From Nostochopsis sp. (GTDB taxonomy: Bacteria > Cyanobacteriota > Cyanobacteriia > Cyanobacteriales > Nostocaceae), in NCBI GenBank assembly GCA_051172755.1, contig JBMNDX010000001.1, positions 863,566 through 927,565 of the forward strand: a stretch of 64,000 bases of DNA, written 5' to 3'. The first letter of the stretch is position 1. Each line of letters begins with the position of its first letter. The notes under the pieces are model-generated. The model was not told the origin of the DNA. It did no database searches and saw nothing but the letters and a program-made list of their open reading frames with translations. The position numbers and the translations under genes were made by a program. Shown here in pieces: positions 1,991-54,692 of this stretch.

Positions 1991-3793
1991 TCAAAAGGGA
2001 TTGACAATGATGGAAAAGTACAAACCGTTTTCTTGCCAAGAGTCTTTCTCCTCGGAATCAACTGAAATTAAAGGAATACCCCAATCAAGGCGAGCGGTGA
2101 GATTGTCTTCAAGTTGTAAGCGCAGCCCTAATCCTATAGATAGCAAGATATTGCTATTGAGTTCAATTTCTGTGTCTTCTCTACCAGAATCATTCCAAGC
2201 ATTGCCGAAATCCACAAAGGGAGTCACCTGTAAAAAGTTCCTGCGTCCTGAGAAGCGAACGATGGGAATTCGCACTTCCGCAGATGCAAAAATACCGTTA
2301 TCTGTCAATAAAGCATCTTGACGATAGCCCCGCACGGAATTTAAGCCCCCAATACCAATTTGTTCAAAGGGAACGAGTGGTCTATCTGCTAGTTGTATGT
2401 CACCTCGTAGCAGCAACAAAGTATCGCGACCCAATAAGCGTACCCACTGTCCTTGTCCTCTCCAAGAGACAAAACGACTATCGGGAAAGGTTTCATTGAT
2501 AGTGGCGTCAAAAAGACCAACTCCGACACTTAACTGAGAACGCATAGCAAATACTTGCTGGCTATCACGAGAAACCCATTGTTGAAAAAAGCGCACAGCT
2601 GTTACTCGTGTTCTTCCTTCGGCGTCTGCACCTGACCCCGGAAAAGGAGTTTCGTCATCCAAAAATATGGCTTTACTGCGACGATGAGTTGCTGTTATGC
2701 CTAAGAGAAATTCTTGAGTAGTTTTTTGTAGTATGGGCTGAGTTAGTGTTAGTTCGTAGTAATTAGTGTTTGATTGAATATCAAGAACATCAAACGGTTT
2801 TTCTATAACTTTATTATCAGAAAGACCATAGCTAAATGACAAAGTGCCATTGCGAGAGTTGATGGGCAAGGTATAGTTTAAATCAAAGGCATTACTACCA
2901 TCTGTATTGGCGTAAGCAGCACTAATGCTATCGCCCGATCCAGAAAGATTGGCTTCGCTTAGTTCTATTTGCCGACGAAAAGCGCCGATAGCTGGCGATC
3001 GCCCATTATCCAAAGTGAACTTTACATTAAAAGTATTGGCTTCTGTAATTTTTACTTCTAGTAAACTTTGAGCAGGACGAGATCCTGCTGACAATTCTGC
3101 TGATAAGGCTTCAATTAAAGGATTAAGTTGTAATAACTGCAATGCTTCTAACAAGCGATCGCTATTTAGGGGTTTTTTTGTGACTAGAGCAAGACGACTT
3201 TGTAAATATTTAGGGTTAAGTTTTTGAGCACCTGTAACTTTTATGTCTTCTAGTTCACCCTCAACAACCCTAATTTCCACTACACCATTCTGCAATTTTT
3301 GCGGGGGAATATAAGCCCCAGATGTGATGTATCCTTTGTTTACATAAAATTGAGTAATCTTTGAACTAACTTGGAACAGTTCTGCAAAGGTAATAGGGCG
3401 ATTCGTAAAAGTTTTAGTAATTTCGTCAAAATCTTCAGGACTAAAAACCGTACTACCTGTGATTTTAAATTTTTTCACGATGATAGTTTGGGGAACTTCA
3501 CCACTTGGGGTTGGTTCTGGAATTGGAGTTGTTGTTCCAGGAGGTTGCAATAATTCCTCTGGAGACGGTAAAGGTAATGCTGGTGACTGTTCTGGTAAAG
3601 GCTGACTTGAGGGAAGTTTATCAAGTAGAGGTCTGACATTTGGAATTTGAGCAGTTTTGTGATTTGATATTTGCGTTGTTTGAATAACTTGGGCTTTTAG
3701 TGGCTTGATTGCTGTTGTACTAAAGATTATTACTACACTCACCCAATACCAGTATTTAAACATATTTAATTGGAATTGAATGTTACTGGACAT
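1991..3793 (-). CDS. TpsB / ShlB-FhaC family outer-membrane two-partner-secretion transporter (POTRA plus beta-barrel)
   Basis: 600 aa with an N-terminal signal-anchor and a POTRA-like segment (FKITGSTVFSPEDFDEITK). The C-terminal region is typical of ShlB/FhaC-type barrels and ends with an aromatic residue (F). Confidence 0.65.
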   Translation of the reverse strand: MSSNIQFQLNMFKYWYWVSVVIIFSTTAIKPLKAQVIQTTQISNHKTAQIPNVRPLLDKLPSSQPLPEQSPALPLPSPEELLQPPGTTTPIPEPTPSGEVPQTIIVKKFKITGSTVFSPEDFDEITKTFTNRPITFAELFQVSSKITQFYVNKGYITSGAYIPPQKLQNGVVEIRVVEGELEDIKVTGAQKLNPKYLQSRLALVTKKPLNSDRLLEALQLLQLNPLIEALSAELSAGSRPAQSLLEVKITEANTFNVKFTLDNGRSPAIGAFRRQIELSEANLSGSGDSISAAYANTDGSNAFDLNYTLPINSRNGTLSFSYGLSDNKVIEKPFDVLDIQSNTNYYELTLTQPILQKTTQEFLLGITATHRRSKAIFLDDETPFPGSGADAEGRTRVTAVRFFQQWVSRDSQQVFAMRSQLSVGVGLFDATINETFPDSRFVSWRGQGQWVRLLGRDTLLLLRGDIQLADRPLVPFEQIGIGGLNSVRGYRQDALLTDNGIFASAEVRIPIVRFSGRRNFLQVTPFVDFGNAWNDSGREDTEIELNSNILLSIGLGLRLQLEDNLTARLDWGIPLISVDSEEKDSWQENGLYFSIIVNPF

Positions 3794-4598: not shown

Positions 4599-5224
4599 AA
4601 AACCCGATTTTTGAATAGGGTGAGATTAATTTTAGAGGGTGTTTGAAAAGTTCGTTTTCATGTATCCTGGCGATGTTCGCCCTGCGCGGCTTCCCGAAAG
4701 GTAGCCTGCTTACGCAGGCTATAATTAGTCCACAAAGGCGAACTTGGTTTGTAAAGCAAGAGACTTCCAGTCTGTCTGTGGTGTGGGGATTTTAAAGATT
4801 TGGGATGCTCTCAATAACAGCGATCGCGTACCAAAATTAAGCTATCTTTCCACCTGTTTGATCACTTTTCCTGCTTCACCCTTACTTTTTGATTTGTCTT
4901 TGACGATAACTTTGACTCTCACACCAACGCCTTTTTTTACTAAAACGCGGACTTTAACAATGAGATTACCGACTTTGACTAGAACCTCAACCTTAACCGG
5001 CATGAGTTTTCTATTAAAGGATTAAAAACATCCCTTTAAAGTTGGCATAGATTAATTAGATTATCAGTCCAATCTCATACAGTCGGCAAAGTTTAAATTG
5101 TGATTAAAAACACAATAATAAGGCGCTCTCGTAAGCTAATGAGCATTTAAGTTGCATAAAACCAGGGCTGAAGCCCTTACTACAAGCGAATCAGTCTGGA
5201 AAAATGAATGACGATGAGCTTACG

Positions 5225-5349: not shown

Positions 5350-6534
5350 TTACACTTCTAATGAAGAACGGAACAAAACGCGTCCTGGAATTACCTCATC
5401 GTTAATCTTGGCATACACCCGCAGACAGGCGGACACTTCTCCTGGTATACCACCAATCTCTAGTTGTAAATCGTCTTTTGACCAAGTATAGATATCGGCG
5501 TAGGTTCCCCACAATGGGCGGATTTGTATTTGATAACCAGCATCACGGGCTTTTTCCACGACGCCATCAAGAGTACGACGGGCTTCTTGTTGGAGTTTTC
5601 CCCACCAAGAAAAGCGATCGCACGGTGGCAAATATACTAAAGAATGAATCGCCTCATCTAAATCTAATCTAGCCCGGAGTGCGATCGCTGGGTCACCATT
5701 GGTACTAGTAAGGACACGCTGAAACCGGTCTACCAGTGCTGTCACATACTTAGATTTTTCTGAATCTGAACTTAAAGGTCTAACACCAAAGCGGTCTACG
5801 GTTTTTAAAGTATGGTGTAAACACGTATCTGCTTCGATAAAATAGAGACAAACAGATACAACCCCAGCTAAAACATCTAATCCCCCACCTCTTTTTTCTA
5901 CTTGCAACTGTGGATCAAAATCAACCTGATCTGAGAAAAACAAGCCAGTTGCATAAACACTTCCCTGTAAACCAGAGTAAACAGGTTCATTGCGGCTAAA
6001 ACCAACCTGTTGGACAGCAAACTTTTCTTCCAAAGCACCTAATTGACTGACTTCCGCCAAAATGCATTCCCGCCAAATATGAGCTAGTTTTTCCGGAACT
6101 CGTAGCAGCAAGCGTTGGATTTCGTTCCACAAATCTAGATCATTTTTGCTGTGAAACTTGTACACACCAACATATTGCAACAATTCTTGATCACCCAGCA
6201 AAGCATCACCAATGTGTTTAAGTTTCTGTTCTTGGGGAATTTCCAACTGAATTGGTTCCAGTACATCTTCCCAGGTGGGGGGAGCGGGAGTGTGGGGAGT
6301 GTGGGGAGTGTGGGGAGTTTCCTGTGGTTGCAAAAGTTGATCTAATTCGCACACCAGTTCTTGACAAGCGCTGTTACCTGGATCTGTTGTATCTTCTTTG
6401 AGTGCTTCTTGTAATTGAGTTCGCAGTCCATGTAAACCTAACCGCAGTACCCAAGCTAATTTTGAGTCCTCAATTTCCAATAACTTGCTGAGGTGCTGCA
6501 TGTTCTCTCCATTATTTCTGCAATACTGACGCAA
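5350..6534 (-). CDS. hypothetical protein, third gene of the dynamin/Hsp70-like operon; carries an HTPHTPHTP repeat
   Basis: 394-aa ORF. The start is more likely 6502 (MQHLSK), which is preceded by GGAGAGAAC. No recognisable domain. Confidence 0.55.
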   Translation of the reverse strand: MRQYCRNNGENMQHLSKLLEIEDSKLAWVLRLGLHGLRTQLQEALKEDTTDPGNSACQELVCELDQLLQPQETPHTPHTPHTPAPPTWEDVLEPIQLEIPQEQKLKHIGDALLGDQELLQYVGVYKFHSKNDLDLWNEIQRLLLRVPEKLAHIWRECILAEVSQLGALEEKFAVQQVGFSRNEPVYSGLQGSVYATGLFFSDQVDFDPQLQVEKRGGGLDVLAGVVSVCLYFIEADTCLHHTLKTVDRFGVRPLSSDSEKSKYVTALVDRFQRVLTSTNGDPAIALRARLDLDEAIHSLVYLPPCDRFSWWGKLQQEARRTLDGVVEKARDAGYQIQIRPLWGTYADIYTWSKDDLQLEIGGIPGEVSACLRVYAKINDEVIPGRVLFRSSLEV

Positions 6535-6552
6535 AATCTCTCTCTTATTTCT

Positions 6553-6617
6553 TCCTCTGCGTTCTCTGCGTCTCTGTGGTTAAATAAAAACCGCAGAGAC
6601 ACAGAGGACACAGAGTT
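6553..6617. repeat. intergenic palindromic hairpin (CTCTGCGTCTCTGTGGTT-loop-AACCGCAGAGACACAGAG), shared with 10070-10135
   Basis: Imperfect inverted repeat read directly. A near-identical arm sequence lies in the other internal spacer of the same operon. Confidence 0.65.
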
Positions 6618-6619
6618 TC

Positions 6620-9600
6620 TCAGTGCAATCCGCAAAATGGATCGCGTTCTGTCTCGACGTTGTTAGACTGAGCTTGGAGGGAATCAGGGTAAACGCATCC
6701 CTCTATTTTCAGACATTCGGGATTTGTTGATGTCCAGTAGGGTACTTCAAACGCGTGGATTCGCAAGATACCTTGTTTGTTGAGGGAGACGTAATATTTA
6801 CAAGGATATTCGGATTTGATGTCTGGTTGGGGAAGTTCGCCGATCAGTTCCCATGTGTTTGATTCTGGGTTGCGAAATTGGAAGTAAAATGTGTGTTTAC
6901 CACTGACGGGGAAGGGTGGTAATTCTGCGATTAAACCTATTCCTTGGATTTGGGTGTCATCTTCGTTGTAACGAAATATTTGTACTTCTTGGTTTTGATT
7001 GGTGGAAAATAGTACTGTGTGAGCATCGGTTTTGAAGGCGTTGGCTGATTCGGCGACGTTGACGGCGATATCACAGACGACTTCTCCATGATCAGAAATC
7101 ACTGTTTGTGTGGCGATCGCTTTGGCTGAATCAAGACAAGGTATATTAATGGGGATGAGATAATGGGGTTTACCTCGTGAAAGTAGTAGGTCGATGTCTA
7201 GTTTTTGGTTGATTTCAAATTGGACTTGAATGTTGTTTTTAAAGTCTTCTTCGCTCAATCCCAATTTTTTCATCAGGATATCGCCGTTGTAGCTACCCCA
7301 AAGTTGGAGTTTCATGTTCTCGAAGTCTTGACGTCTGACGTTGTTGGTTAATTGCATTCCCATCCAACGACTGCGATATTTGGCGATCGCATCTGTGGCT
7401 TGAAGTTGATATAATTCTTGTCCAGCGTGAAAGATGGGATCGGGACTACCGCCGATAACTTCGCGCACGAAGGAGCAGGGGAGAAAGTAAAATAGATTTT
7501 TGACATCTATATATAGTTGGTTTGCGCCTTTTTTGAGTAAGTCTTTGGCTTGTTGGGGAGAGAAGCTGAGTTGTCTGAGTTTTTCAGCGAAGCAAGCGCC
7601 GGCGGATGTGGCTAGTTTGGTGTATTCTGGTTCAAAGGTGACGCGTTCTTCGTTCCAAAGAAAGTAGTCGGATTTGCTGAAGACTCGGTAGAGTTCGCGT
7701 TCGACAATTTCTAAGTTGCAGGTTTTACCGGAAAGGATTAACCAATCGACTGTTTCTGTGGAGTCATCAGGATTGAGGGATTTGTTTTTAAAGGCGTTTT
7801 CGATTAATCCTTGGGCGATACCGACTGCTTCTTTGACTACGGGTGCGACTGCTTTTTCAAATTGTTCGACGGTGATGGTGATGTTGAGGCGATCGCTCAC
7901 GCTGCTAGGTAAGGTAATATCGTTGTGTAGCAGCAGTTCTGAGATTTTTTGCTCATCGAGGATGAATAAAGGTGTATCGAGTGTTTGACGTTTTTGTCCA
8001 AGGGTGAGTTTGGCTGCTTCGGCGTGTTCCCAAAGGGTGTAAAATGTTTGAGCGCGGGATGGAGCATTTTTCCACCGGGTGGGAAGGACTTTTTCGGCGT
8101 CGTTTAAAGCTTCTTTGTAAGCTTCTCCTTCGCGCACTTCGTTATCAATACAAGCTAACAACGAACCTGGTTGATATTTACCGTTTTGCAGAAAGCGATC
8201 GCTTAATTCTTCCGGTTGAACTTTTAAGATATCTCTGGGTAAGATTTCCTCTACAATTGCAGTTAGTAAACAATCGGCTATTGCTGCTTTCAATAATAAA
8301 AATAGCCGCAAGGTAATTAACTCACCACCCAGTTGCAGATGTCCAGAGGAACCGAGTAGTTTGGGTGTAAGTTTATAGTAGCGTCCACCGTCACCTCGAT
8401 CTTCTCCTGGTTCAAAGGGATTAATTTCTTTGAGGGAAAGACGAATTAAGGCTAAATCGGTAGTTCCACCACCAATATCCAACACCATCACATTTTGCCA
8501 CCATTTCTCCCCATCCTGGCGACAGCGAGTTTTAAAAGATTCAATTCCTAAATTTAAATCGCCGCCAAATTCTCGCCAGAGGAAAAATATTGCCACGGAA
8601 ACAGCTTCGTCATAAGCCATTTGCACATCTTCGATATCTAGCTGTTTCACCAACTGTTCAATTTCTCGGCGGACAAAAGGCGAAGCAATAGTTGGGTATG
8701 TCACCACCGTGCGGTAAAATTTACCTTGGGAACATTTGCCCGAACGCTGGCGATATTTTTCGGTTAACTCGATTAATTGAGCATAAGCTGCTTGCAAAAG
8801 CTTGTTAACAGGGATGGAATCTTCTTGATCATTGAGAGTAATTTGAAAAGAACGTTCTTGTCCAAAATAACGTTTTGGTGAATGCAAAAATCTGCTATCA
8901 ATTCCCTCACCTTGTCTAATCGCATCCAGACGGTGTTGTTTAGCTTGTTCACCCAAACTAACTTTGACTTTTAGGGGATCATTGGTTGGTAAAAACGGTT
9001 CTAAGCCAATAACTTCCAACTCGCTAGGAATTTCACTCAAACGTCGATCTTTATCCAACTCTACCGAGATCAAACTTTGCCATTCTAGGGGTGGAACCCG
9101 AAACACTTCATGATAAATTTGATTTAAACGTTTACTAGCAGACCGACGAAACCAAGGTAAACGCTTACTCAAAGCAATTTCAATTTGACGAATAGCTTCT
9201 AAAAATTGCTCTCCATTTAAATTGCGTAAATTGACATTACTATCAACCTGGATATTTTTACTCACTTCAATCAAAAATCTTTGCCATTCCTGCGCCCAAG
9301 CATCCTGACCAATACCTGCTACATTATCCACAGGACGTTGAGTTAACCATGTCGATAAGCGATCGCGCAACCTCGCTTCTTGTTCGCTAGGTAAACTATG
9401 GGGTGTGACAATCACCTTGGGATCGTACAGCGTCACTGTAGAATTAGATGTGCCAAAATCAATCGCAAACCAACCAGGATAAGTAATCTCCGGTTGATTT
9501 TCAACTTGCGTCGCTGGTACTTCAGCAGGTAACTTTACTTCTTCATCCGGTAAAGTTTGGGGAACTGTATTTTTAAAAGAGTTTAAGACTGAATCGGTAA

Positions 9601-10039
9601 AAGACATGAGTGGATTTTTAATTGAGTAATCTTTGATGGGATAAGTCCAGATATTGCATTCAGCAGTTGTCTGTTTGTTAATAGACAAAAGCGGATCACC
9701 CGTTGCGTCTGATTCAAAATACTCGATAATTATTTGCAAATTACAATTAACACCTGTGGGTAAAGGTTCATTCCAGCGACAATCACTTTGTCTTAATCGC
9801 TGGGGAGTATTCAGCTGTAAAAGCTTGTGCGTACCAAAGTTTACACTTTTATAAGCCGATTGCATCACTATCGCCAAGTCTTCTGGTATACCAGAAACAA
9901 ATATATTAATGCGGAAAATGTGAGGAAAATGAGGATTAGGAACAGGCTTAATTTCAATAGCAGGTAATAATAATAAAGATGGATCGTTGGGATGTGTACG
10001 TAATTGGTAACGATTAAAAAGTTCTATCTTGATTGGCAT
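6620..10039 (-). CDS. giant Hsp70/actin-fold ATPase-like protein (1139 aa) with N- and C-terminal extensions
   Basis: Hsp70 phosphate-1 motif AIDFGTSNSTV and phosphate-2 motif VLDIGGGTTDL are present. A weak adenosine-motif equivalent is LILSGKTCNLEIV. Spacing is larger than in DnaK. Confidence 0.65.
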   Translation of the reverse strand: MPIKIELFNRYQLRTHPNDPSLLLLPAIEIKPVPNPHFPHIFRINIFVSGIPEDLAIVMQSAYKSVNFGTHKLLQLNTPQRLRQSDCRWNEPLPTGVNCNLQIIIEYFESDATGDPLLSINKQTTAECNIWTYPIKDYSIKNPLMSFTDSVLNSFKNTVPQTLPDEEVKLPAEVPATQVENQPEITYPGWFAIDFGTSNSTVTLYDPKVIVTPHSLPSEQEARLRDRLSTWLTQRPVDNVAGIGQDAWAQEWQRFLIEVSKNIQVDSNVNLRNLNGEQFLEAIRQIEIALSKRLPWFRRSASKRLNQIYHEVFRVPPLEWQSLISVELDKDRRLSEIPSELEVIGLEPFLPTNDPLKVKVSLGEQAKQHRLDAIRQGEGIDSRFLHSPKRYFGQERSFQITLNDQEDSIPVNKLLQAAYAQLIELTEKYRQRSGKCSQGKFYRTVVTYPTIASPFVRREIEQLVKQLDIEDVQMAYDEAVSVAIFFLWREFGGDLNLGIESFKTRCRQDGEKWWQNVMVLDIGGGTTDLALIRLSLKEINPFEPGEDRGDGGRYYKLTPKLLGSSGHLQLGGELITLRLFLLLKAAIADCLLTAIVEEILPRDILKVQPEELSDRFLQNGKYQPGSLLACIDNEVREGEAYKEALNDAEKVLPTRWKNAPSRAQTFYTLWEHAEAAKLTLGQKRQTLDTPLFILDEQKISELLLHNDITLPSSVSDRLNITITVEQFEKAVAPVVKEAVGIAQGLIENAFKNKSLNPDDSTETVDWLILSGKTCNLEIVERELYRVFSKSDYFLWNEERVTFEPEYTKLATSAGACFAEKLRQLSFSPQQAKDLLKKGANQLYIDVKNLFYFLPCSFVREVIGGSPDPIFHAGQELYQLQATDAIAKYRSRWMGMQLTNNVRRQDFENMKLQLWGSYNGDILMKKLGLSEEDFKNNIQVQFEINQKLDIDLLLSRGKPHYLIPINIPCLDSAKAIATQTVISDHGEVVCDIAVNVAESANAFKTDAHTVLFSTNQNQEVQIFRYNEDDTQIQGIGLIAELPPFPVSGKHTFYFQFRNPESNTWELIGELPQPDIKSEYPCKYYVSLNKQGILRIHAFEVPYWTSTNPECLKIEGCVYPDSLQAQSNNVETERDPFCGLH

Positions 10040-10069
10040 TTTTTCAAATATAAAATTTAGTTTAGTTTT

Positions 10070-10135
10070 TTCTCTGTGTACTCTGCGCCTCTGTGGTTGA
10101 TAAATTATTGATTGAACCGCAGAGTACGCAGAGAG
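10070..10135. repeat. intergenic palindromic hairpin (CTCTGTGTACTCTGCGCCTCTGTGGTT-loop-AACCGCAGAGTACGCAGAGAG)
   Basis: Read directly. Paralogous to 6553-6617. Confidence 0.65.
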
Positions 10136-10147
10136 GAGAGGTGAGAG

Positions 10148-12703
10148 TTAATCCTTGATTATTGTTACTTGGGAAAGGGTTTCGAGCCAAGGTGGAACAG
10201 ATTTTGTTTTATCTTTATCTGCATCGGCGATATATCTTAGTAAAGGTTCGTGTTTGGATTTTAGTAGTTCTTGTAAACTATCGACAATCTCTTTTAAGGC
10301 TCTGGAAAATGAAATTTTCACTTGCTTGGTTAACTGACTGACGTATTGAACTAAATGTAAACCAGCACTAGCAGTAATTTCATCTCGCAGACGCAAAACG
10401 GCTATTTGATGATTAAATGGTCTGGGAGGGGTGGGAAATTGTTTATCGGGACTCCAATCTAGGATTTGTCCGTTGGGATGTTTGTCATCTTTGCGCGCTA
10501 AGGGAAATAAAGCATCGGCGTTGATGACATGATTGTTATTAGCTAATCCACTGTGGTCAATAATTAATCTTTGCCATTTATTCGCTGGGTCAACTGCGCG
10601 TAAAAAGTTACGAAATAGGCGGAGTTGATTTTTGCCAAAGTTGTCTTGAATGTATTTTTCGATATCTGGTGATAGGACAGAATTAACTGTGTTACGTTCA
10701 TCGGCGACTTCGATTGATAGTTTTTTGAAAAAGTCGATCACTGCTTCTGTGGTGCGATCATGAGCAAAAGTTTGCATTTCTTGAATTGTTTGTACAAATG
10801 CAGAGTAGAAATCATCGCTTTTGGTGGGAATGCTATCTTCTACTTCTTCGTCACCAAAAAAACTGTCACTTTTGGTGAGAGAAATTGTGCCATTTTTAGT
10901 TCTATCAAATAGTAATGTCCATTCGCTCCATTCAAAGAAGATTTTATTAGTTAATTCGTCTTTGACGACATCACTCACGGCGACACCATCGCGGTTTTTT
11001 AATATTGGTTGCTTTTCTAATTCTTCTTGAAATTGTCTGTAAATTGTGACTAAGTTTTCGATTCCTTGGCGCAGTTCGATAAATTTCGGGTTTTCTTCGA
11101 CGGGGATATAAGCGGGTACTTGTTCGAGGAGGGTTTTGAGGTTATCTTGCTCTTTTTGCAAAGCTTTGACGGTTCTTTGGGTATCCTCTACAAGTTGTTT
11201 TAAACCATTTTGGGCGACATGATCTTTGAGTAATGCACGTAATCTACTTATTCCTCCATCTTCTGCAAAGTCACTGATTTGTTTTTGGAGGGTACTCGAT
11301 GGTGGTAACATTTTACTTAGTTGTTGCCATTTTTCCCGCAATTCCACTTCTGAGAGTTTGTTGGGAATGTCTAATTCTGGCAAAAACTCTGGGGAGGAAA
11401 CTTGGATTAACGAAGAAAGTTCCGCCAGTTTGGCTAAACCGTGGAGTTGGGAGAGTAAAACTATATTTTTTTTCTCTGTGGTTAAATTGCTGGCACTGGC
11501 AATGGTAAGTTGGAGAATACCCAGGCTTTCTAAAATATTGGCTTCGGAAAGTAATGGTTCGTCTACGAGTTCATCAAGGGCGCGTTCGTCACTCTGGGTA
11601 AGGGGAAGTTGATTGAAGCGTCCGACACCAACAATAATTCTATCTCTTAAGTCGTGTCCTTTATCGCGTTCCAACATCGTGCGAATTTTTGAGGCGATCG
11701 CACCACCTGGATATCTACCGTTGAGTAGCAACAGCAGAGTTTGCACGTCTCTGAGTTCCCGCAGTGACAAAAAGGTATCCCGTACCCCAGAATCTGCTGA
11801 ACCTAAACCGGGAAAGTCTAATAAAACAAATTCATTTGTCCCTTGGAGTGCAGATAAATCCCAGATGTCTTTGGATACTTCAACGCTAACATCAATGCGG
11901 CGAATCAAAGAAAAGCTTTTCTGTAAATCTACGGCTGATGGTTGAGCAAAATTTGTCCATGGTTGCGGAGGTGGTGGAAGTTGATCAAAGCTGAGTTCTA
12001 AAATATTCATCGGTGGTTCAGATAACCTCAGCCCTTTTTTCGCGGTAGTATGATCTATTTGGTAGCTTTTACCGCCAATTTGTTTTCCGTAAGTATTGTA
12101 GGTACGCATATACACTACTATTTCTCGCAGTAGCGATCGCAGTTCTAAACTTTGCGTCTGATTCCAAGCTTGTTCGCACCATCTTAAGATTCCGTTGCTA
12201 TCAATAATTGTTATCGGGTGCAAGTTTTTCAAACTAGTCAGCAATTCCAGGGATATTTCTGACGCTTTCGCCCGTGTTTCCACTTCCTGGAGCATAAACC
12301 GCAGACACTCTTTCACACCCTCATCGGAGAGATACTGAACGGTGTACTTACCAATTTGGGTAGTTTGTAAGTCTGGTTGTTGACGCAAATGAATTGCGGT
12401 GACGTTCCCGGTAGTGGGGGTTTCACTGATAGGTAAAGCATCAGCGTAGCCAATGAGACTACCAATTAATAAAGTTTTGCCACTACTGAATTCACCCATA
12501 ACGCCGATTTTGACAGGTGAAGCAGCAATTTCTACGACTCTTTGGGCAGATTCTTTTAAACGTTGAATGTTCTCATGGATACTTCGAGGGAACCAACTTT
12601 CTTGGGGAGGCGGGTTTTGCGAGACTAACTCCAGGCTTTGGAGGACAGATTCTCCATATTCTTTGTAGTGGCTTAGTTGTGCGATCGCTATGTCACTTTT
12701 CAT
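10148..12703 (-). CDS. bacterial dynamin-like GTPase (851 aa)
   Basis: G1 P-loop GVMGEFSSGKT, G2 Thr in PTTGNV and G3 DFPGLG. Large alpha-helical stalk region. G4 is non-canonical. Confidence 0.65.
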   Translation of the reverse strand: MKSDIAIAQLSHYKEYGESVLQSLELVSQNPPPQESWFPRSIHENIQRLKESAQRVVEIAASPVKIGVMGEFSSGKTLLIGSLIGYADALPISETPTTGNVTAIHLRQQPDLQTTQIGKYTVQYLSDEGVKECLRFMLQEVETRAKASEISLELLTSLKNLHPITIIDSNGILRWCEQAWNQTQSLELRSLLREIVVYMRTYNTYGKQIGGKSYQIDHTTAKKGLRLSEPPMNILELSFDQLPPPPQPWTNFAQPSAVDLQKSFSLIRRIDVSVEVSKDIWDLSALQGTNEFVLLDFPGLGSADSGVRDTFLSLRELRDVQTLLLLLNGRYPGGAIASKIRTMLERDKGHDLRDRIIVGVGRFNQLPLTQSDERALDELVDEPLLSEANILESLGILQLTIASASNLTTEKKNIVLLSQLHGLAKLAELSSLIQVSSPEFLPELDIPNKLSEVELREKWQQLSKMLPPSSTLQKQISDFAEDGGISRLRALLKDHVAQNGLKQLVEDTQRTVKALQKEQDNLKTLLEQVPAYIPVEENPKFIELRQGIENLVTIYRQFQEELEKQPILKNRDGVAVSDVVKDELTNKIFFEWSEWTLLFDRTKNGTISLTKSDSFFGDEEVEDSIPTKSDDFYSAFVQTIQEMQTFAHDRTTEAVIDFFKKLSIEVADERNTVNSVLSPDIEKYIQDNFGKNQLRLFRNFLRAVDPANKWQRLIIDHSGLANNNHVINADALFPLARKDDKHPNGQILDWSPDKQFPTPPRPFNHQIAVLRLRDEITASAGLHLVQYVSQLTKQVKISFSRALKEIVDSLQELLKSKHEPLLRYIADADKDKTKSVPPWLETLSQVTIIKD

Positions 12704-12724
12704 ACTTAGTCCAGTAAATTAGAG

Positions 12725-12792
12725 GATCGGGGATTGGGGAAGGTGGGGCCCCTGGAGGGGATAAGGGGTAATGAGGATTGGGGATCGAGGTG
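12725..12792. repeat. G-tract-rich sequence with degenerate STRR1-like ATTGGGG units
   Basis: GGGGATTGGGGAAGGTGGGGCCCCTGGAGGGGATAAGGGG... read directly. Lies in the promoter region of the dynamin operon. Confidence 0.5.
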
Positions 12793-13035
12793 TAAGAGAA
12801 ATAATTGTCAATTAATGCTATCTATCTATACCCCTACACTCCTTTCTTTACAGCAATAGCCATAGTTATAACTTGGTTTTTAATCAAAGAAGTTTAGCAA
12901 TTTGTTCGTCATGATTGTTTCCAAATTGCAAAACTTTGTAGAAGTTTGCATAAATTTTTGACACTCCCGTACCTGAAGGCGACGGGATTCTTGCTTCATC
13001 CAGCCAACATGTCCCTCATGGGCTTTCTGCTCTAA

Positions 13036-14329: not shown

Positions 14330-14816
14330 TATCTTTTAGTGCGTCTTTCTGTCCAATTCTACCCCTAAAACAAATGGGAGAAGCGTCTAGTGGATTGTCA
14401 CTAGTAAAACCTAATTTATGTTTTTTCTGGAAAGTCTACAAGGGTGGAGAGAGTTTAGAACTTTGTGCGAAGGTAAGTCTGAAAAACTTAATCGAGATTT
14501 TCACGTTATAAGTCGATGGGAACCAACAAGCCAAATTTGTTCCGAATGTGGATACAAATGGGGTAAACTCGATTTAAAAATTCGGAAGGTTCAGTGTTTG
14601 AATTGTGGCACTGAACACGACCGAGATGAAAACGCAGCGAAAAATATAAACAAAGTCGGGATAGGGTATTGCCACGACTCTAAACGGACGCAGAGACAGA
14701 GTAAGACGACAATGGTCGCGTCAGTCATTGAAGCGTCAAGAATCACCGCTCCTAAAGGAGCGGTGAGTATGTCAATTGAATTCTCAGCTTGCGTTCAGCT
14801 TCAGCATTTATCGTAG
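14330..14816 (+). pseudogene. TnpB (IS200/IS605 OrfB) C-terminal remnant with zinc-finger and RuvC-III motifs
   Basis: TSQICSECGYKWGKLDLKIRKVQCLNCGTEHDRDENAAKNI matches the TnpB C-terminus. Upstream frames are degenerate and no intact N-terminus exists. Confidence 0.6.
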
Positions 14817-15408: not shown

Positions 15409-15480
15409 AATCTTGGTGTCTTGAAAAGATCCCCGACAACTTGTGCGGATACAGCTGGCGAATGGTGGATCTGAACCCCA

Positions 15481-15508
15481 GTAGATACGTTAAATTTAAC
15501 GTCTCTAC
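15481..15508. repeat. 28-bp perfect palindrome GTAGATACGTTAAATTTAACGTCTCTAC
   Basis: Read directly. Family members also at 16113 and 48207. Confidence 0.8.
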
Positions 15509-15858
15509 TTTTGGTGGAATGACGAAAAATCTTGTGAGGGGCCTTATCCCCTATTCACCAACTATCCGTATTTAATCTATCTTCAATTGCTTTCAACAAT
15601 ATCTCAAAGTTTGATTGAGGTGAATATCGGACGTCAGAGCATTCATGTCTTTCAGTAATTTGGTGAGTTCAGCAAACGTGTTGCGAATTTCGGTTTATAA
15701 GTCAAGTTCTTCTCGAAATCCCTGCAAATTAGCACCGAGTTCCGTCAAACCCTCTGTTGCTCCTTGTCCAATTACCTGTAGCAGTTCTTCCTCGGTCACT
15801 TCCAATTCGCAATTGTTTTGGTCACATAGTCAGTTTAAATTGAGTTGTGGTGACGAAT

Positions 15859-16072: not shown

Positions 16073-16112
16073 GACCTCTCCAGAAATGAACTATGCGTTG
16101 CCCAAAACCCTT

Positions 16113-16140
16113 GTACAGACGTTAAATTTAACGTCTGTAC
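16113..16140. repeat. 28-bp perfect palindrome GTACAGACGTTAAATTTAACGTCTGTAC
   Basis: Read directly. Confidence 0.8.
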
Positions 16141-16380
16141 ATCTGGTGGGTTTAAATGTCAATCGATTTGTCTGATCCGAGCAGTATTGAAATCGAATGA
16201 TGCTGAAATCGAGGTTAAGATTTAAAATCTTTGCTTTTTTAACAAAAATCATCTTTGATAAAGTTATATCAAGATAAAGCCGCAAAACTAAATCGTCAAT
16301 AGTGATGTAGCAAACCAGTTTTGGGGAGATGGCGTAAATCCTAGAAATATAGTCATCTGTCAAAAATAAGGAGCCAGGTT

Positions 16381-27959: not shown

Positions 27960-28050
27960 TAGACCCGTAATCTTTTGTAGAGACGCGCCTTAGCGAAGCC
28001 ATGCGCGTCTCTACAGATGAATTTTTTGTACCAAAATCCTTAACACCAAG
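27960..28050. repeat. MITE-like palindromic element, inverted copy of 245-360
   Basis: TAGAGACGCGCCTTAGCGAAGCCATGCGCGTCTCTA plus the flanking TTTTTTGTACCAAAATCCTTAAC read directly. Confidence 0.7.
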
Positions 28051-35016: not shown

Positions 35017-35026
35017 GTTCGTAGTA

Positions 35027-35071
35027 AGCACCCCTAGCCTTTTTTTGAGAACTAAAGTCCTCACTACGAAC
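35027..35071. repeat. REP-like palindrome GTTCGTAGTAAG...CTCACTACGAAC
   Basis: Inverted arms read directly. Sits between the convergent histidine kinase and hli genes. Confidence 0.65.
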
Positions 35072-48181: not shown

Positions 48182-48206
48182 CTAATAGACATCTCCGAGA
48201 AAGAAT

Positions 48207-48234
48207 GTAGAGACGTTAAATTTAACGTCTCTAC
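48207..48234. repeat. 28-bp perfect palindrome GTAGAGACGTTAAATTTAACGTCTCTAC
   Basis: Read directly. Confidence 0.8.
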
Positions 48235-48273
48235 AAGGGTTTTGGGGAACGCATAATTCATTTTTCGAGAGGT

Positions 48274-50151: not shown

Positions 50152-50280
50152 TGATGAGCTTTATAATACGGTCACAACTCAGTGTTGCTTTTAGTTTACC
50201 CAGTGGCCATAAGGATCTAATTATTTATGCTTTGTGATTGACAAGAGTTTCAAAGATTTTGACATTTATTAACGTTTATA

Positions 50281-50336
50281 GTAAGGACTTTAGTGCTTAA
50301 AAATAAGGACTAAAGTCCTTACTACAAACTTGCTCC
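50281..50336. repeat. REP-like palindrome (GTAAGGACTTTAGT...ACTAAAGTCCTTAC)
   Basis: Read directly. Confidence 0.65.
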
Positions 50337-52244: not shown

Positions 52245-52316
52245 AGATGCGAAATTATCCTGCGGGATCTTGCTACGCATCTCTACTCTAGTACTCCACC
52301 ACAGAAACTTTGAGGG

Positions 52317-52370
52317 GTTCGTAGTGAGCGCTTAAGCGCTCATAGAGGACTAAAGTCCTCACTACGAACC
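52317..52370. repeat. REP-like palindrome GGTTCGTAGTGAGCGCTTAAGCGCTCATAGAGGACTAAAGTCCTCACTACGAACC
   Basis: Read directly, between convergent genes. Confidence 0.7.
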
Positions 52371-52394
52371 CAGCATAGTTCGTGTGGGCAAGTA

Positions 52395-54692
52395 CTAATG
52401 TAGCAATTTCTGTAGAGCGCTTAGTAATGCGTGGTTTGTGAAGGGTTTAGGCAAGAATTCTTGGATAGTAAAACTTTTGTTGTGACCATTAACCCAATTG
52501 GGCATCAGTCCACTCATCGCAATAATTTGCACCTGTGGATTAATGCGTTGCAATGTGAGAATCGTAGTAGAGCCATCCATCTCTGGCATCATCAAGTCTG
52601 TCAAAACTACACTGATGTCATCTTTGTACTGAGAATAGAGTGCAAGTGCTTCAATGCCGTCGCTGGCGGTTAAAACCCTATAGTTATGAGTTTCCAGTGT
52701 AGTTTTAGTAATCTCGCAGATTGTGGTTTCGTCATCTACCACCAAAATCAATTCGCCATTGCCGTTTGGTAGTTCTGCATCAACTTCTGTTTGGGGTTCA
52801 ATAGCTTGGTTACTTGGCAAGTATACCTTAAAGGTGCTTCCTTTTCCCACTTTGCTATAAACATTCAAAAAACCACTATGATTTTTAATAATGCCCATGA
52901 CAGTGGAAAGCCCTAGACCGCTTCCTTTGCCTAACTCTTTTGTGGTAAAAAAAGGATCAAAAATGCGGTCTATAATTTCAGGTGCAATTCCTGTTCCGGT
53001 ATCAGCAATACTAATCACAATGTAGGAACCTACCTCAGCATCCACATGCATCCGAGCATAACTTTCATCAACCCAAAGGTTTTCGGCGCTAATACTCAGA
53101 ATCCCGCCATTGGGCATAGCATCGCGAGCATTGACTGTGAGGTTCATCAGCACCTGATGAAGTTGAGTTGCATCTGCAAAAATTGTCCAAAGATCAGGTG
53201 CTAAATCAGCTTGGGTTTCAATCGATTTTGGGAAAGTTCTTTGAGCGATCCGTGCGACATCTAAAAGCAAATGCCTAGCTTGGACAATGGTGCAAGTCCC
53301 TTCCACACCTCGACGCGTAAACGACAGAATTTGCTTGACCAAATCAGCGCCTCGCTTGGCACTGCTTTCTAATATTTCCAACAATTGCCGACTTTTATCA
53401 TCCAGGTTGTGAATTTTAAGGGGTAGCAATTGAGCAACAGCCAAAATGGGAGTGAGAATATTGTTGAAGTCGTGGGCAATGCCCGAAGCGAGAGTGCCTA
53501 AGCTTTCCAGCCGTTGAGTGCGAAGAAACTGCGCTTCGAGTAGTTTTTTCTCAGTAATGTCAGTATTGACAATCAGAATGGATTTAGGATTACCTGCTTC
53601 ATCGCGCACAAGTGTCCAGCGACTTTCGACGATAATGTCTTTACCATCCTTTGTGACTTGCTGTAACTCACCCTGCCATTTACCTTCTTTAGCCAATATT
53701 GCCTGTGTTGCTTCAAATTGCGGCAAAGTTGCGCTATGTCGGTACAAAAACTCAACGGCACTCTTGCTAAGGATTTCTGCTGCTTCCCATCCATACAAAT
53801 GTTCCGCACCTTTATTCCAGAATAACAGATGTTGCTCCAAGTCTTGCACAAAAATTGCGTCAGTTGCGACATCCAATAAAGCAGCTTGCTCACGGATTTG
53901 TTGTTCTGCCAGTTTGCGATTGGTAATGTCCTCCGCAATGCCCACAACTCGATGCGGTTCTCCAAATTTATCTCTGAGCGGGAAACCGCGATCGCGTATC
54001 CATCGCCACGAACCATCGGGACGAATAATTCTATACTCCTCATCATAGTTTCCCGCCAGTGACTGCTCAAAGAAAACATTCTGAATGCGTTGCCGATCTT
54101 CGGGATGAATTGCCTCTAGCCATCCTCTAAAGTTGGCATCCAAGCTTTCACAAGTACGTCCCCAGATGTTTTCGTAGGCAGGACTGACGTAGAGTAACTG
54201 AGGTTCTTTGGGGTCTGCCATCCAGAAAACCATCTCAGTAATATTCTCTGCCAATTGGCGAAACCGTTCTTCGCTTTCCTGTAGAGCTTGTTCAGTGATA
54301 TACTGTTTATACCGTTCCTGTGCCTCCCGCAACTCCCGTTCAACTGCGGGTACTAACCGGGTGAGATGACCTTTGATCAGGTAGTCGTTAGCTCCGGCTT
54401 TCATGGCAGCAACGGCAGTATCTTCACCAATCGTGCCGGAGACGATAATAAATGGTAAATCCAACTTCCGGCTCTGAAGGACTTTCAGCGCTTCTAGCGC
54501 ACTGAAAGCAGGCATACTGTAATCTGCAATCACGATGTCCCAAGACTGTTGATCTAGAACTGCCTGCATGGCACTTGGGGTATCCACCCGAACATAATCT
54601 AGGGTGTAGCCACCCCGACGTAACTCCCGCAGAGTTAACAGAGTATCATCCTCCGAATCCTCAAGAATCAGAACACGCAGGTGAGAGTTCAT
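52395..54692 (-). CDS. hybrid sensor histidine kinase (REC-PAS-PAS-HisKA-HATPase-REC)
   Basis: N-terminal REC (VIADYSMP), H-box AHDFNNILTPI, G-box GLGLSTVMG and C-terminal REC (VLTDLMMPEMDG). Confidence 0.85.
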   Translation of the reverse strand: MNSHLRVLILEDSEDDTLLTLRELRRGGYTLDYVRVDTPSAMQAVLDQQSWDIVIADYSMPAFSALEALKVLQSRKLDLPFIIVSGTIGEDTAVAAMKAGANDYLIKGHLTRLVPAVERELREAQERYKQYITEQALQESEERFRQLAENITEMVFWMADPKEPQLLYVSPAYENIWGRTCESLDANFRGWLEAIHPEDRQRIQNVFFEQSLAGNYDEEYRIIRPDGSWRWIRDRGFPLRDKFGEPHRVVGIAEDITNRKLAEQQIREQAALLDVATDAIFVQDLEQHLLFWNKGAEHLYGWEAAEILSKSAVEFLYRHSATLPQFEATQAILAKEGKWQGELQQVTKDGKDIIVESRWTLVRDEAGNPKSILIVNTDITEKKLLEAQFLRTQRLESLGTLASGIAHDFNNILTPILAVAQLLPLKIHNLDDKSRQLLEILESSAKRGADLVKQILSFTRRGVEGTCTIVQARHLLLDVARIAQRTFPKSIETQADLAPDLWTIFADATQLHQVLMNLTVNARDAMPNGGILSISAENLWVDESYARMHVDAEVGSYIVISIADTGTGIAPEIIDRIFDPFFTTKELGKGSGLGLSTVMGIIKNHSGFLNVYSKVGKGSTFKVYLPSNQAIEPQTEVDAELPNGNGELILVVDDETTICEITKTTLETHNYRVLTASDGIEALALYSQYKDDISVVLTDLMMPEMDGSTTILTLQRINPQVQIIAMSGLMPNWVNGHNKSFTIQEFLPKPFTNHALLSALQKLLH

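Follow-up and report, generated by a model that had tools for sequence, protein, structure and literature searches.

What kind of system is encoded by an operon in which a dynamin-like GTPase is followed by an outsized Hsp70-like ATPase and by a third protein without any recognizable domain? The question is raised by a locus in a stretch of 64,000 nucleotides (nt) from the cyanobacterium Nostochopsis sp. (contig JBMNDX010000001.1, positions 863,566 to 927,565), which was analysed as a whole and is hereafter called the window; coordinates refer to it unless preceded by the handle of another locus. A preliminary description of this DNA, made from the sequence alone, had listed three minus-strand open reading frames (ORFs) at 10148-12703, 6620-10039 and 5350-6534, coding for 851, 1139 and 394 amino acids (aa) respectively, and all three are present as claimed in the ORF list. 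Here termed A, B and C, they constitute a self-contained module that keeps one order in filamentous cyanobacteria and in unrelated bacteria with genomes of high G+C content (GC), and we propose that their products might work together as a single nucleotide-driven machine. With the start of gene C revised as explained below, the genes are:

10148..12703, minus strand: gene A, 851-aa dynamin-like GTPase of the cyanobacterial 'chaperone clade' (ORF and Pfam Dynamin_N match)
6620..10039, minus strand: gene B, 1139-aa multidomain ATPase of the Hsp70 (ASKHA) fold
5350..6501, minus strand: gene C, 383-aa conserved protein whose fold has no known match

The motifs that had been claimed for A (GVMGEFSSGKT and DFPGLG) and B (AIDFGTSNSTV and VLDIGGGTTDL) can all be read in the translations. 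The claim for gene C needs a correction at its start: the ORF 5350-6534 exists and yields 394 aa if read from a TTG codon, and the likelier start is the ATG at 6501. This ATG has the sequence GGAGAG just 5' of it, serves as the start of the identical protein in the NCBI database (P0121, from a metagenome-assembled genome of Nostochopsis sp.) and matches the position at which all homologues of C begin. Judged by these features, translation of C most likely starts at 6501 and gives 383 aa; the spacer between B and C is therefore 118 nt long and not 85.

Examination of other genomes reveals that the three genes travel together. A combined pattern and tblastn scan, using one genome per species, recovered 80 cyanobacterial loci, all from Nostocales and filamentous Oscillatoriales (e.g. 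Hormoscilla, Oscillatoria princeps and Floridaenema); every cyanobacterial carrier seen is filamentous. The order A-B-C on one strand is found in about 70 of these 80 loci, the exceptions lying mostly at contig ends; at four loci (L010, L020, L054 and L072) C is not within reach. A profile search extended the C family to distant members, located in metagenomic contigs with a GC of 45-73%, and most of the approximately nine contigs long enough to tell (55-73% GC, one of 45%) display the same order, with genes for a GTPase (850-950 aa), an Hsp70-like protein (1115-1277 aa) and a C protein (378-490 aa) in succession. Homology extends over the full length of all three proteins, at 24-39% identity. 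Their genes abut or often overlap by a few bases, which suggests translational coupling. A metagenome scan added further high-GC loci with the order A-B-C (L087, L088, L089 and L112) and one with A and B only (L116). The co-occurrence, which the preliminary description had named as a point to check, is borne out, both in the cyanobacteria and in most of the metagenomic contigs of sufficient length. The flanking genes are not common even to relatives whose trio is 92-97% identical, and therefore the unit of inheritance is exactly A, B and C. A plasmid or phage origin of the trio was considered and rejected: tblastn searches returned no match for A, for B or for either of two distant B homologues among 72,556 plasmids, nor for B among 50,697 phage records.

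In the window the trio has ordinary neighbours, namely genes for a ShlB/FhaC-type transporter, an ABC ATPase, a TnpB fragment, MsrB, a radical-SAM enzyme and a P-type ATPase, and ordinary neighbourhoods are also seen in Trichormus variabilis, Kamptonema and Calothrix PCC 6303. A different picture is offered by one cyanobacterial metagenome-assembled genome of 9.3 Mb, which encodes three paralogues of B; the full neighbouring trio was inspected for two of them. One (L128:3684-18113) is directly followed by genes for EAD1-trypsin, EAD1-iSTAND, MoxR-type AAA and vWA_CoxE proteins. The other (L129:1-15644) has a vWA_CoxE gene and a gene for a 526-aa protein on one side, with VWA, PP2C and Ser/Thr-kinase genes on the other. 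The C-terminal half of this 526-aa protein (L129:746-2326, after the vWA_CoxE gene) matches residues 851-1117 of B (6689-7489) at 50% identity and is devoid of the DPFxGxH tail discussed below; its N-terminal domain recurs, with 46% identity, at the start of the gene located after the vWA gene of L128. It follows that the C-terminal domain of B is a module that can be separated from the rest and is shared with vWA-linked systems. Extended versions occur in a subgroup of the high-GC trios: in two loci (L081:1787-13821 and L087:310-3413) a DUF4407 protein with a hydrophobic, transmembrane (TM)-like segment is encoded upstream, and in three (L081, L088:12573-15200 and L089:12412-14909) the downstream genes encode another, shorter Hsp70-like protein of 570 aa (matching PF00012 with E 1.9e-7) and a protein of about 280 aa without a domain match.

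Analysis of protein A places it in the dynamin family, as had been claimed: it matches Pfam Dynamin_N (PF00350) with 39.1 bits against a cut-off of 27 (E=9.8e-10), as do all 45 of 45 members of the A family, and it possesses a large GTPase domain with G1 (GEFSSGKT) and G3 (DFPG) motifs. These lie at:

12473..12505, minus strand: P-loop (G1) of A, GVMGEFSSGKT, residues 67-77 (from the translation)
11801..11818, minus strand: G3 of A, DFPGLG, residues 296-301 (from the translation)

Both the GEFSxGK[TS] and the G3 motif are retained in distant homologues, and DFPGLG is invariant in the family alignment. A profile of A found no match among solved structures, and the nearest solved relatives by sequence, both weak, are a dynamin-like protein (DLP) of Campylobacter jejuni (5owv_C, E=0.13) and SynDLP (9em9, E=1.3). 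In a phmmer alignment with SynDLP, weak and with a poor E-value, the NRID of the G4 site is aligned with GRFN of A (residues 361-364, 11612-11623), of which G361, R362 and F363 are invariant across the family; the guanine specificity of A is therefore uncertain, and GRFN at this site may mean an altered nucleotide specificity. No TM-like segment is seen in A (maximum KD19 1.22). Several orthologues of A from Nostoc and Tolypothrix bear the name 'proteasome protein' in NCBI or UniRef (e.g. P0326, P0327 and P0331); domain scans of the A family returned nothing to back this name.

Protein B was modelled with AlphaFold2 from an alignment of 56 homologues, with a predicted local distance difference test score (pLDDT) of 81 and a predicted template modelling score (pTM) of 0.71. 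The model is composed of four regions, which are listed here with the C-terminal tail:

9647..10039, minus strand: predicted N-terminal beta-rich domain of B, residues 1-131 (AlphaFold2 secondary structure and pLDDT)
9494-9637, minus strand: predicted disordered linker of B, residues 135-182 (AlphaFold2 secondary structure and pLDDT)
7490..9484, minus strand: Hsp70-type nucleotide-binding core of B with helical insertions, approximately residues 186-850
6623..7489, minus strand: predicted C-terminal beta-rich domain of B, residues 851-1139 (AlphaFold2 model)
6623-6643, minus strand: invariant tail DPFCGLH at the C-terminal end of B

The core assumes a two-lobed ASKHA fold in the model, with phosphate-1, phosphate-2 and adenosine motifs, and scores higher against the nucleotide-binding domains (NBDs) of Hsp70 and Hsp110 than against every actin-like protein. 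The preliminary description had seen an Hsp70/actin-fold ATPase in B; the motifs that it quoted lie at residues 192-202 (AIDFGTSNSTV) and 519-529 (VLDIGGGTTDL). Its C-terminal extension, which had been given as about 340 aa, measures about 290 aa in the model. The phosphate-1 (DFGTSN, 194-199) and phosphate-2 (DIGGGTTD, 521-528) signatures are invariant in two family alignments and in the distant homologues. Sequence matches of B to solved Hsp70 and MreB structures are at the level of motifs only (E>=0.11), and the fold assignment therefore rests on the AlphaFold2 model. Pfam HSP70 (PF00012) does not match the window protein at E<=1; distant homologues exceed the cut-off of 20.6 bits (24.9 bits for B of L081 and 23.8 bits for B of L083). 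Every B homologue inspected, from 45 to 73% GC, ends in DPF[NSC]GxH-COOH.

Protein C was correctly described as being without a recognizable domain: no match was found in Pfam, NCBIfam, PADLOC, the PDB or among viral folds. It nevertheless represents a conserved family with 235 clusters at 50% identity. Its structural model (pLDDT 77.7) shows a helical N-terminus, a disordered proline-rich linker, an alpha/beta core and a highly conserved C-terminal segment. The latter, GGxPGxV...LR...PGRVxYR, is conserved across all homologues and has a pLDDT below 50 when modelled alone, which suggests that it folds only on binding a partner. Part of the linker, HTPHTPHTP, is encoded by a perfect 9-nt tandem repeat at 6286-6318 (GGGAGTGTG x3.7, plus strand), and its length differs between orthologues. 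A search of the trio proteins for nuclease or pore-forming effector folds found none, the search being limited for the C-terminal domain of B. Neither a signal peptide nor a TM-like segment is evident in A, B or C, suggesting that all three are cytoplasmic.

The gene set, the domain folds, the intact motifs, the synteny and the co-divergence of the three proteins are established. In light of these observations, we propose that A, B and C are subunits of one cytoplasmic GTPase/ATPase machine for membrane remodelling, surveillance or repair, a reading to which we assign a probability of roughly 0.42. Under this proposal, A would self-assemble in a GTP-dependent manner, most likely on the cytoplasmic face of a membrane, and B would use its ATP cycle to bind and remodel a partner, either the assembled dynamin or a client that is bound by the extra beta domains of B. 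The invariant tail of B and the C-terminal segment of C are candidate conserved interaction sites: the tail might dock onto A or C, as the EEVD tail of Hsp70 docks onto co-chaperones, and C could be an adaptor or regulator whose terminal segment takes shape on contact with its partner. The likely purpose would be to remodel, survey or repair membranes under stress, a role also proposed for DLPs such as DynA. The DUF4407 protein of the extended high-GC operons, with its TM-like segment, hints at a link to membranes and is counted in favour of this proposal. The conserved order of the three genes amid unshared flanks, the ordinary neighbourhoods of several trios and the earlier description of the dynamin-DnaK pairing count in its favour as well. 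Several points weigh against it. Complex formation, membrane association, the roles of the subunits and the physiological purpose are all things that we infer; the G4 motif of A appears degenerate, leaving strict GTP specificity unproven; A seems to have no obvious hydrophobic paddle or TM segment, and its binding to membranes is likewise unproven; the sequence similarity of B to Hsp70 is weak (E=0.11), its fold coming from a prediction; and the existence of several paralogous trios, in variable positions and with MoxR-vWA and iSTAND neighbours, is at least as compatible with a role in conflict as with a housekeeping role.

This last point leads to a second reading, in which the trio is an immunity or conflict system (anti-phage or programmed cell death) of the kind typical of multicellular bacteria, with A and B as a thresholded switch or assembly platform and C as the sensor or adaptor, the outcome being membrane sealing, membrane disruption or abortive infection. 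Bacterial dynamins do have defence roles in the literature (DynA in phage defence; the 'Dynamins' LeoA/LeoBC defence system), and the only match of A in PADLOC-DB v2 is to LeoA. This match (E ~1e-6) spans 60 residues around the P-loop, and the only other PADLOC match, to PDC-M61B (E>0.004), covers the DIGGGT motif; none of the trio components has a significant defence-system match in that database beyond similarity at the P-loop level. The presence of several trios in a single 9.3-Mb genome, two of them next to genes for EAD1-trypsin, EAD1-iSTAND, MoxR AAA, vWA, PP2C and kinase proteins, the recurrence of the C-terminal domain of B in a protein encoded after a vWA_CoxE gene, and the variable genomic position of the trio between close relatives are all in line with conflict biology. 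The filamentous form of all cyanobacterial carriers seen also echoes the DO-GTPase/GAP1 systems, which combine GTPases with Hsp70 proteins and are biased to multicellular bacteria (Kaur et al. 2020, PMC7159879), but those systems use another GTPase family and a GAP1 protein. Moreover, the trio includes neither a variable effector nor a domain of the nuclease, TIR, pore or protease type, and each of its three proteins is constant and strongly conserved; no copy of it was found in the plasmid and phage collections; and most neighbourhoods inspected are of a housekeeping character. On balance we regard an immune function as somewhat unlikely, yet as the main rival of the proposal above.

Database names point to a third reading, in which the trio is a relative of proteobacterial SrfABC with a permuted gene order, in which A would be the counterpart of SrfC, B that of SrfB and C that of SrfA. 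For B as for all its homologues, SrfB (PF07520) is the Pfam family that matches best, and many orthologues are called 'virulence factor SrfB'. The three Srf proteins co-immunoprecipitate, and the subunit sizes are similar, at 465, 1007 and 894 aa for SrfA, SrfB and SrfC of Xenorhabdus stockiae (PMC6950479) against 383, 1139 and 851 aa for C, B and A. The SrfB matches nevertheless all fall below the gathering score of 27.1 (21.0 bits for B of the window, 16-25 bits for it together with eight homologues) and cover only some 70-100 of the 992 model positions (~510-610), around the phosphate-2 motif; the name 'virulence factor SrfB' was accordingly rejected for B, sub-threshold local matches being insufficient to earn it. 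The SrfC family model, presumably Pfam PF10139, matches none of 45 A-family members at E<=1, and the NCBIfam SrfA model matches 0 of 44 diverse C-family members. Protein C is also devoid of the TM helix and the lipocalin domain described for SrfA, and the gene order differs. Literature searches for a link of SrfC to dynamin or of SrfB to Hsp70 returned nothing relevant. In this comparison through family models, membership of the trio in SrfABC is not supported, and we consider it very unlikely. A bolder generalization, which seems to us quite unlikely, holds that the trio represents an undescribed and ancient class of dual-NTPase machines of filamentous and multicellular bacteria, in which an Hsp70-like motor loads, remodels or fires a GTPase by way of a new adaptor fold, with SrfABC as a diverged, permuted member; were it true, SrfABC, now viewed as a secreted toxin, would be recast as an intracellular membrane or immunity machine. 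There is, finally, hardly any likelihood that B is a polymerizing actin-like protein of the MreB, ParM or MamK type and the trio a cytoskeletal element with a dynamin at the membrane, acting in cell shape, septation or thylakoid organization of filamentous bacteria: in the model comparisons the NBDs of Hsp70 and Hsp110 outscore every actin-like protein, distant homologues pass the Pfam HSP70 cut-off, and the large terminal domains and insertions of B would probably obstruct the contacts of an actin-like protofilament.

Whichever function it serves, the trio locks a dynamin to a dedicated Hsp70-fold ATPase and an orphan-fold protein across evolutionarily distant lineages. In eukaryotes, dynamin works alongside the Hsc70/auxilin uncoating machinery. 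If A, B and C do form one machine, they would offer a tractable bacterial model for the coupling of GTP-driven assembly to an ATP-driven chaperone-like motor, and a first function for a family that most heterocyst-forming cyanobacteria possess, the genetically tractable Trichormus variabilis among them. The trio might also clarify the real role of the widespread SrfABC proteins, and the unsupported names 'virulence factor SrfB' and 'proteasome protein' call for correction in the databases.

The two spacers of the operon contain prominent hairpins:

10071..10134, minus strand: A-B spacer hairpin, arms of CTCTGCG-type 9-nt repeats and an AT-rich loop (minimum free energy -30.8 kcal/mol, z -7.35)
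6555..6615, minus strand: B-C spacer hairpin of the same repeat family (minimum free energy -42.8 kcal/mol, z -8.16)

That both belong to one family, as the preliminary description had stated, is upheld by an 18-nt arm motif with 3 matches in the 64 kb of the window against 0.04 expected, all within the two spacers; Tandem Repeats Finder (TRF) resolves the arms into arrays of 9-nt tandem repeats. A role as intrinsic terminators was rejected, no U-tract following either hairpin, and no Rfam family reaches threshold, the only matches being spurious ones to miRNA precursors far below it. Westiellopsis differs from the window in the units of its B-C hairpin (CTTGGCG/CGCCAAG against CTCTGCG/CGCAGAG), a difference that amounts to five base pairs with full compensation in a six-sequence alignment. 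In other genera, hairpins likewise tend to occur in the orthologous spacers, built from other units: CCTTTGTG units, GGGGAGT/ACTCCCC units, the GTTCGTAGTGAGGACTTTAGTCC family and GGTTGGGTTAAGCG elements. Stems of at least 15 bp are more frequent in the spacers (19% for A-B, 37% for B-C) than in length-matched intergenic regions of the same loci (9%) or in all controls (16%), a moderate enrichment on a high background. Some orthologous spacers measure only 5-12 nt, others have been enlarged by 0.7-6 kb of inserted DNA, and the genes of distant homologues overlap. Because the units differ, the spacers may be tiny or interrupted and the distant genes overlap, the hairpins are lineage-specific and not ancestral, and the idea that they are a conserved regulatory part of the operon does not hold. 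Judged from these alignments, they are real and structurally maintained, yet lineage-specific repeat insertions. As later insertions they would at most tune mRNA stability or relative expression, in the manner of the repetitive extragenic palindromic (REP) elements in enterobacterial operons, an effect that is possible by analogy.

Insertions of kilobase size between the trio genes were seen at L016, with an A-B gap of 6.1 kb, and at L004, L005, L025 and L057, with B-C gaps of 2-2.9 kb; about 14 other loci, mostly from Nostoc, have A-B gaps of 0.7-1.6 kb. It follows that the spacers can accommodate large insertions, and that co-transcription of the three genes may not be the rule everywhere. 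The GTTCGTAGTGAGGACTTTAGTCC family is a second hairpin repeat family of the window (35017-35071, 50274-50329 and 52283-52403), and also fills the A-B spacer of the orthologous operon of Iningainema (L008:9876-10000). A near-perfect 30-nt palindrome, TGTAGAGACGTTAAA/TTTAACGTCTCTACA, occurs in three copies (15480-15509, 16112-16141 and 48206-48235) and, with a related hairpin at 27971-28020, makes up another dispersed family of small repeats.

Two further features flank the operon:

12704..13035, minus strand: intergenic region upstream of A, C-rich on the coding strand
5164..5177, minus strand: candidate intrinsic terminator approximately 170 nt downstream of C, from a pattern scan and not functional evidence

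The label 'STRR-like' (resembling short tandemly repeated repetitive sequences) that had been given to the promoter region is only loosely true: the region is C-rich on the coding strand, and TRF finds no tandem array in it. Consensus promoter-like sites upstream of A are not more numerous than in shuffled sequence. The ShlB/FhaC-type two-partner-secretion transporter (1991-3793; POTRA_2 and ShlB domains) is encoded 1.5 kb downstream of the trio on the same strand, with no obvious TpsA-like partner among the ORFs inspected. A 132-aa ORF at 14418-14816, 1.7 kb upstream of the operon, contains only the C-terminal Cas12f1-like TNB (TnpB) domain and appears to be a fragment of a transposon-nuclease gene.

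Comparison with known systems brings out both the affinities of the trio and its distinctness. Like the paired bacterial DLPs (Nostoc BDLP, DynA of Bacillus subtilis, C. jejuni DLP1/2, LeoABC of enterotoxigenic Escherichia coli, IniA/IniC of Mycobacterium tuberculosis and SynDLP), A consists of a Dynamin_N domain followed by a long helical region. Unlike them, it is partnered by an Hsp70-fold ATPase and protein C instead of a second dynamin, and it appears to have a degenerate G4 (GRFN) and has no evident hydrophobic paddle. With Hsp70, Hsp110 and the atypical Hsp70s Ssz1, HscC and YegD, B shares the core fold and the ATP-binding motifs; it differs from them in being about twice as long, with a 130-residue N-terminal beta domain and helical insertions, and in having a 290-residue C-terminal beta domain in place of the canonical substrate-binding domain and lid; its similarity to Hsp70 in sequence is marginal. 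SrfABC, the nearest named system, known as a Salmonella operon regulated by SsrB and as a reported injectable insecticidal and cytotoxic toxin of X. stockiae (PMC6950479), likewise comprises three co-operonic proteins of similar sizes, whereas the hosts of the trio are free-living phototrophs. The DO-GTPase/GAP1 systems (PMC7159879) have in common with the trio a bias towards multicellular bacteria and a constant core in which Hsp70-family proteins accompany a GTPase of the TRAFAC class, and the MoxR-vWA/iSTAND systems that adjoin the paralogous trios were treated in the same study. Unlike them, the trio has a dynamin-family GTPase, no GAP1, FNIII, variable effector or tubulin component, and unrelated flanks; a DO-GTPase2 match was faint and confined to 2 of 45 A-family members (E 0.22).

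The closest precedent is a classification of cyanobacterial dynamin-like proteins, which defined a 'chaperone clade' by the presence of a downstream gene with a DnaK domain, annotated 'molecular chaperone' or 'virulence factor SrfB', in strains that include Calothrix 336/3, Mastigocoleus testarum BC008, Scytonema tolypothrichoides and Nostoc PCC 7524 (Jilly et al. 2018, PMC5827413). Protein A belongs to this clade: B, with its Hsp70 fold, lies directly downstream, and the listed strains overlap the orthologues that we found; in Nostoc PCC 7524, A is Nos7524_3124. The pairing of a dynamin with an Hsp70-like protein, which the preliminary description had not recognized, is therefore not new. That study named the clade from annotation and reported no third gene, giant Hsp70-like architecture, non-cyanobacterial members or function, and we found no follow-up work on the clade in the literature searched. 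As the preliminary description had supposed, the trio as a whole matches no characterized system in PADLOC or in that literature. What appears to be undescribed is thus the obligatory third gene, the architecture of B with its invariant tail, the trios outside the cyanobacteria, and the extended and paralogous versions of the module.

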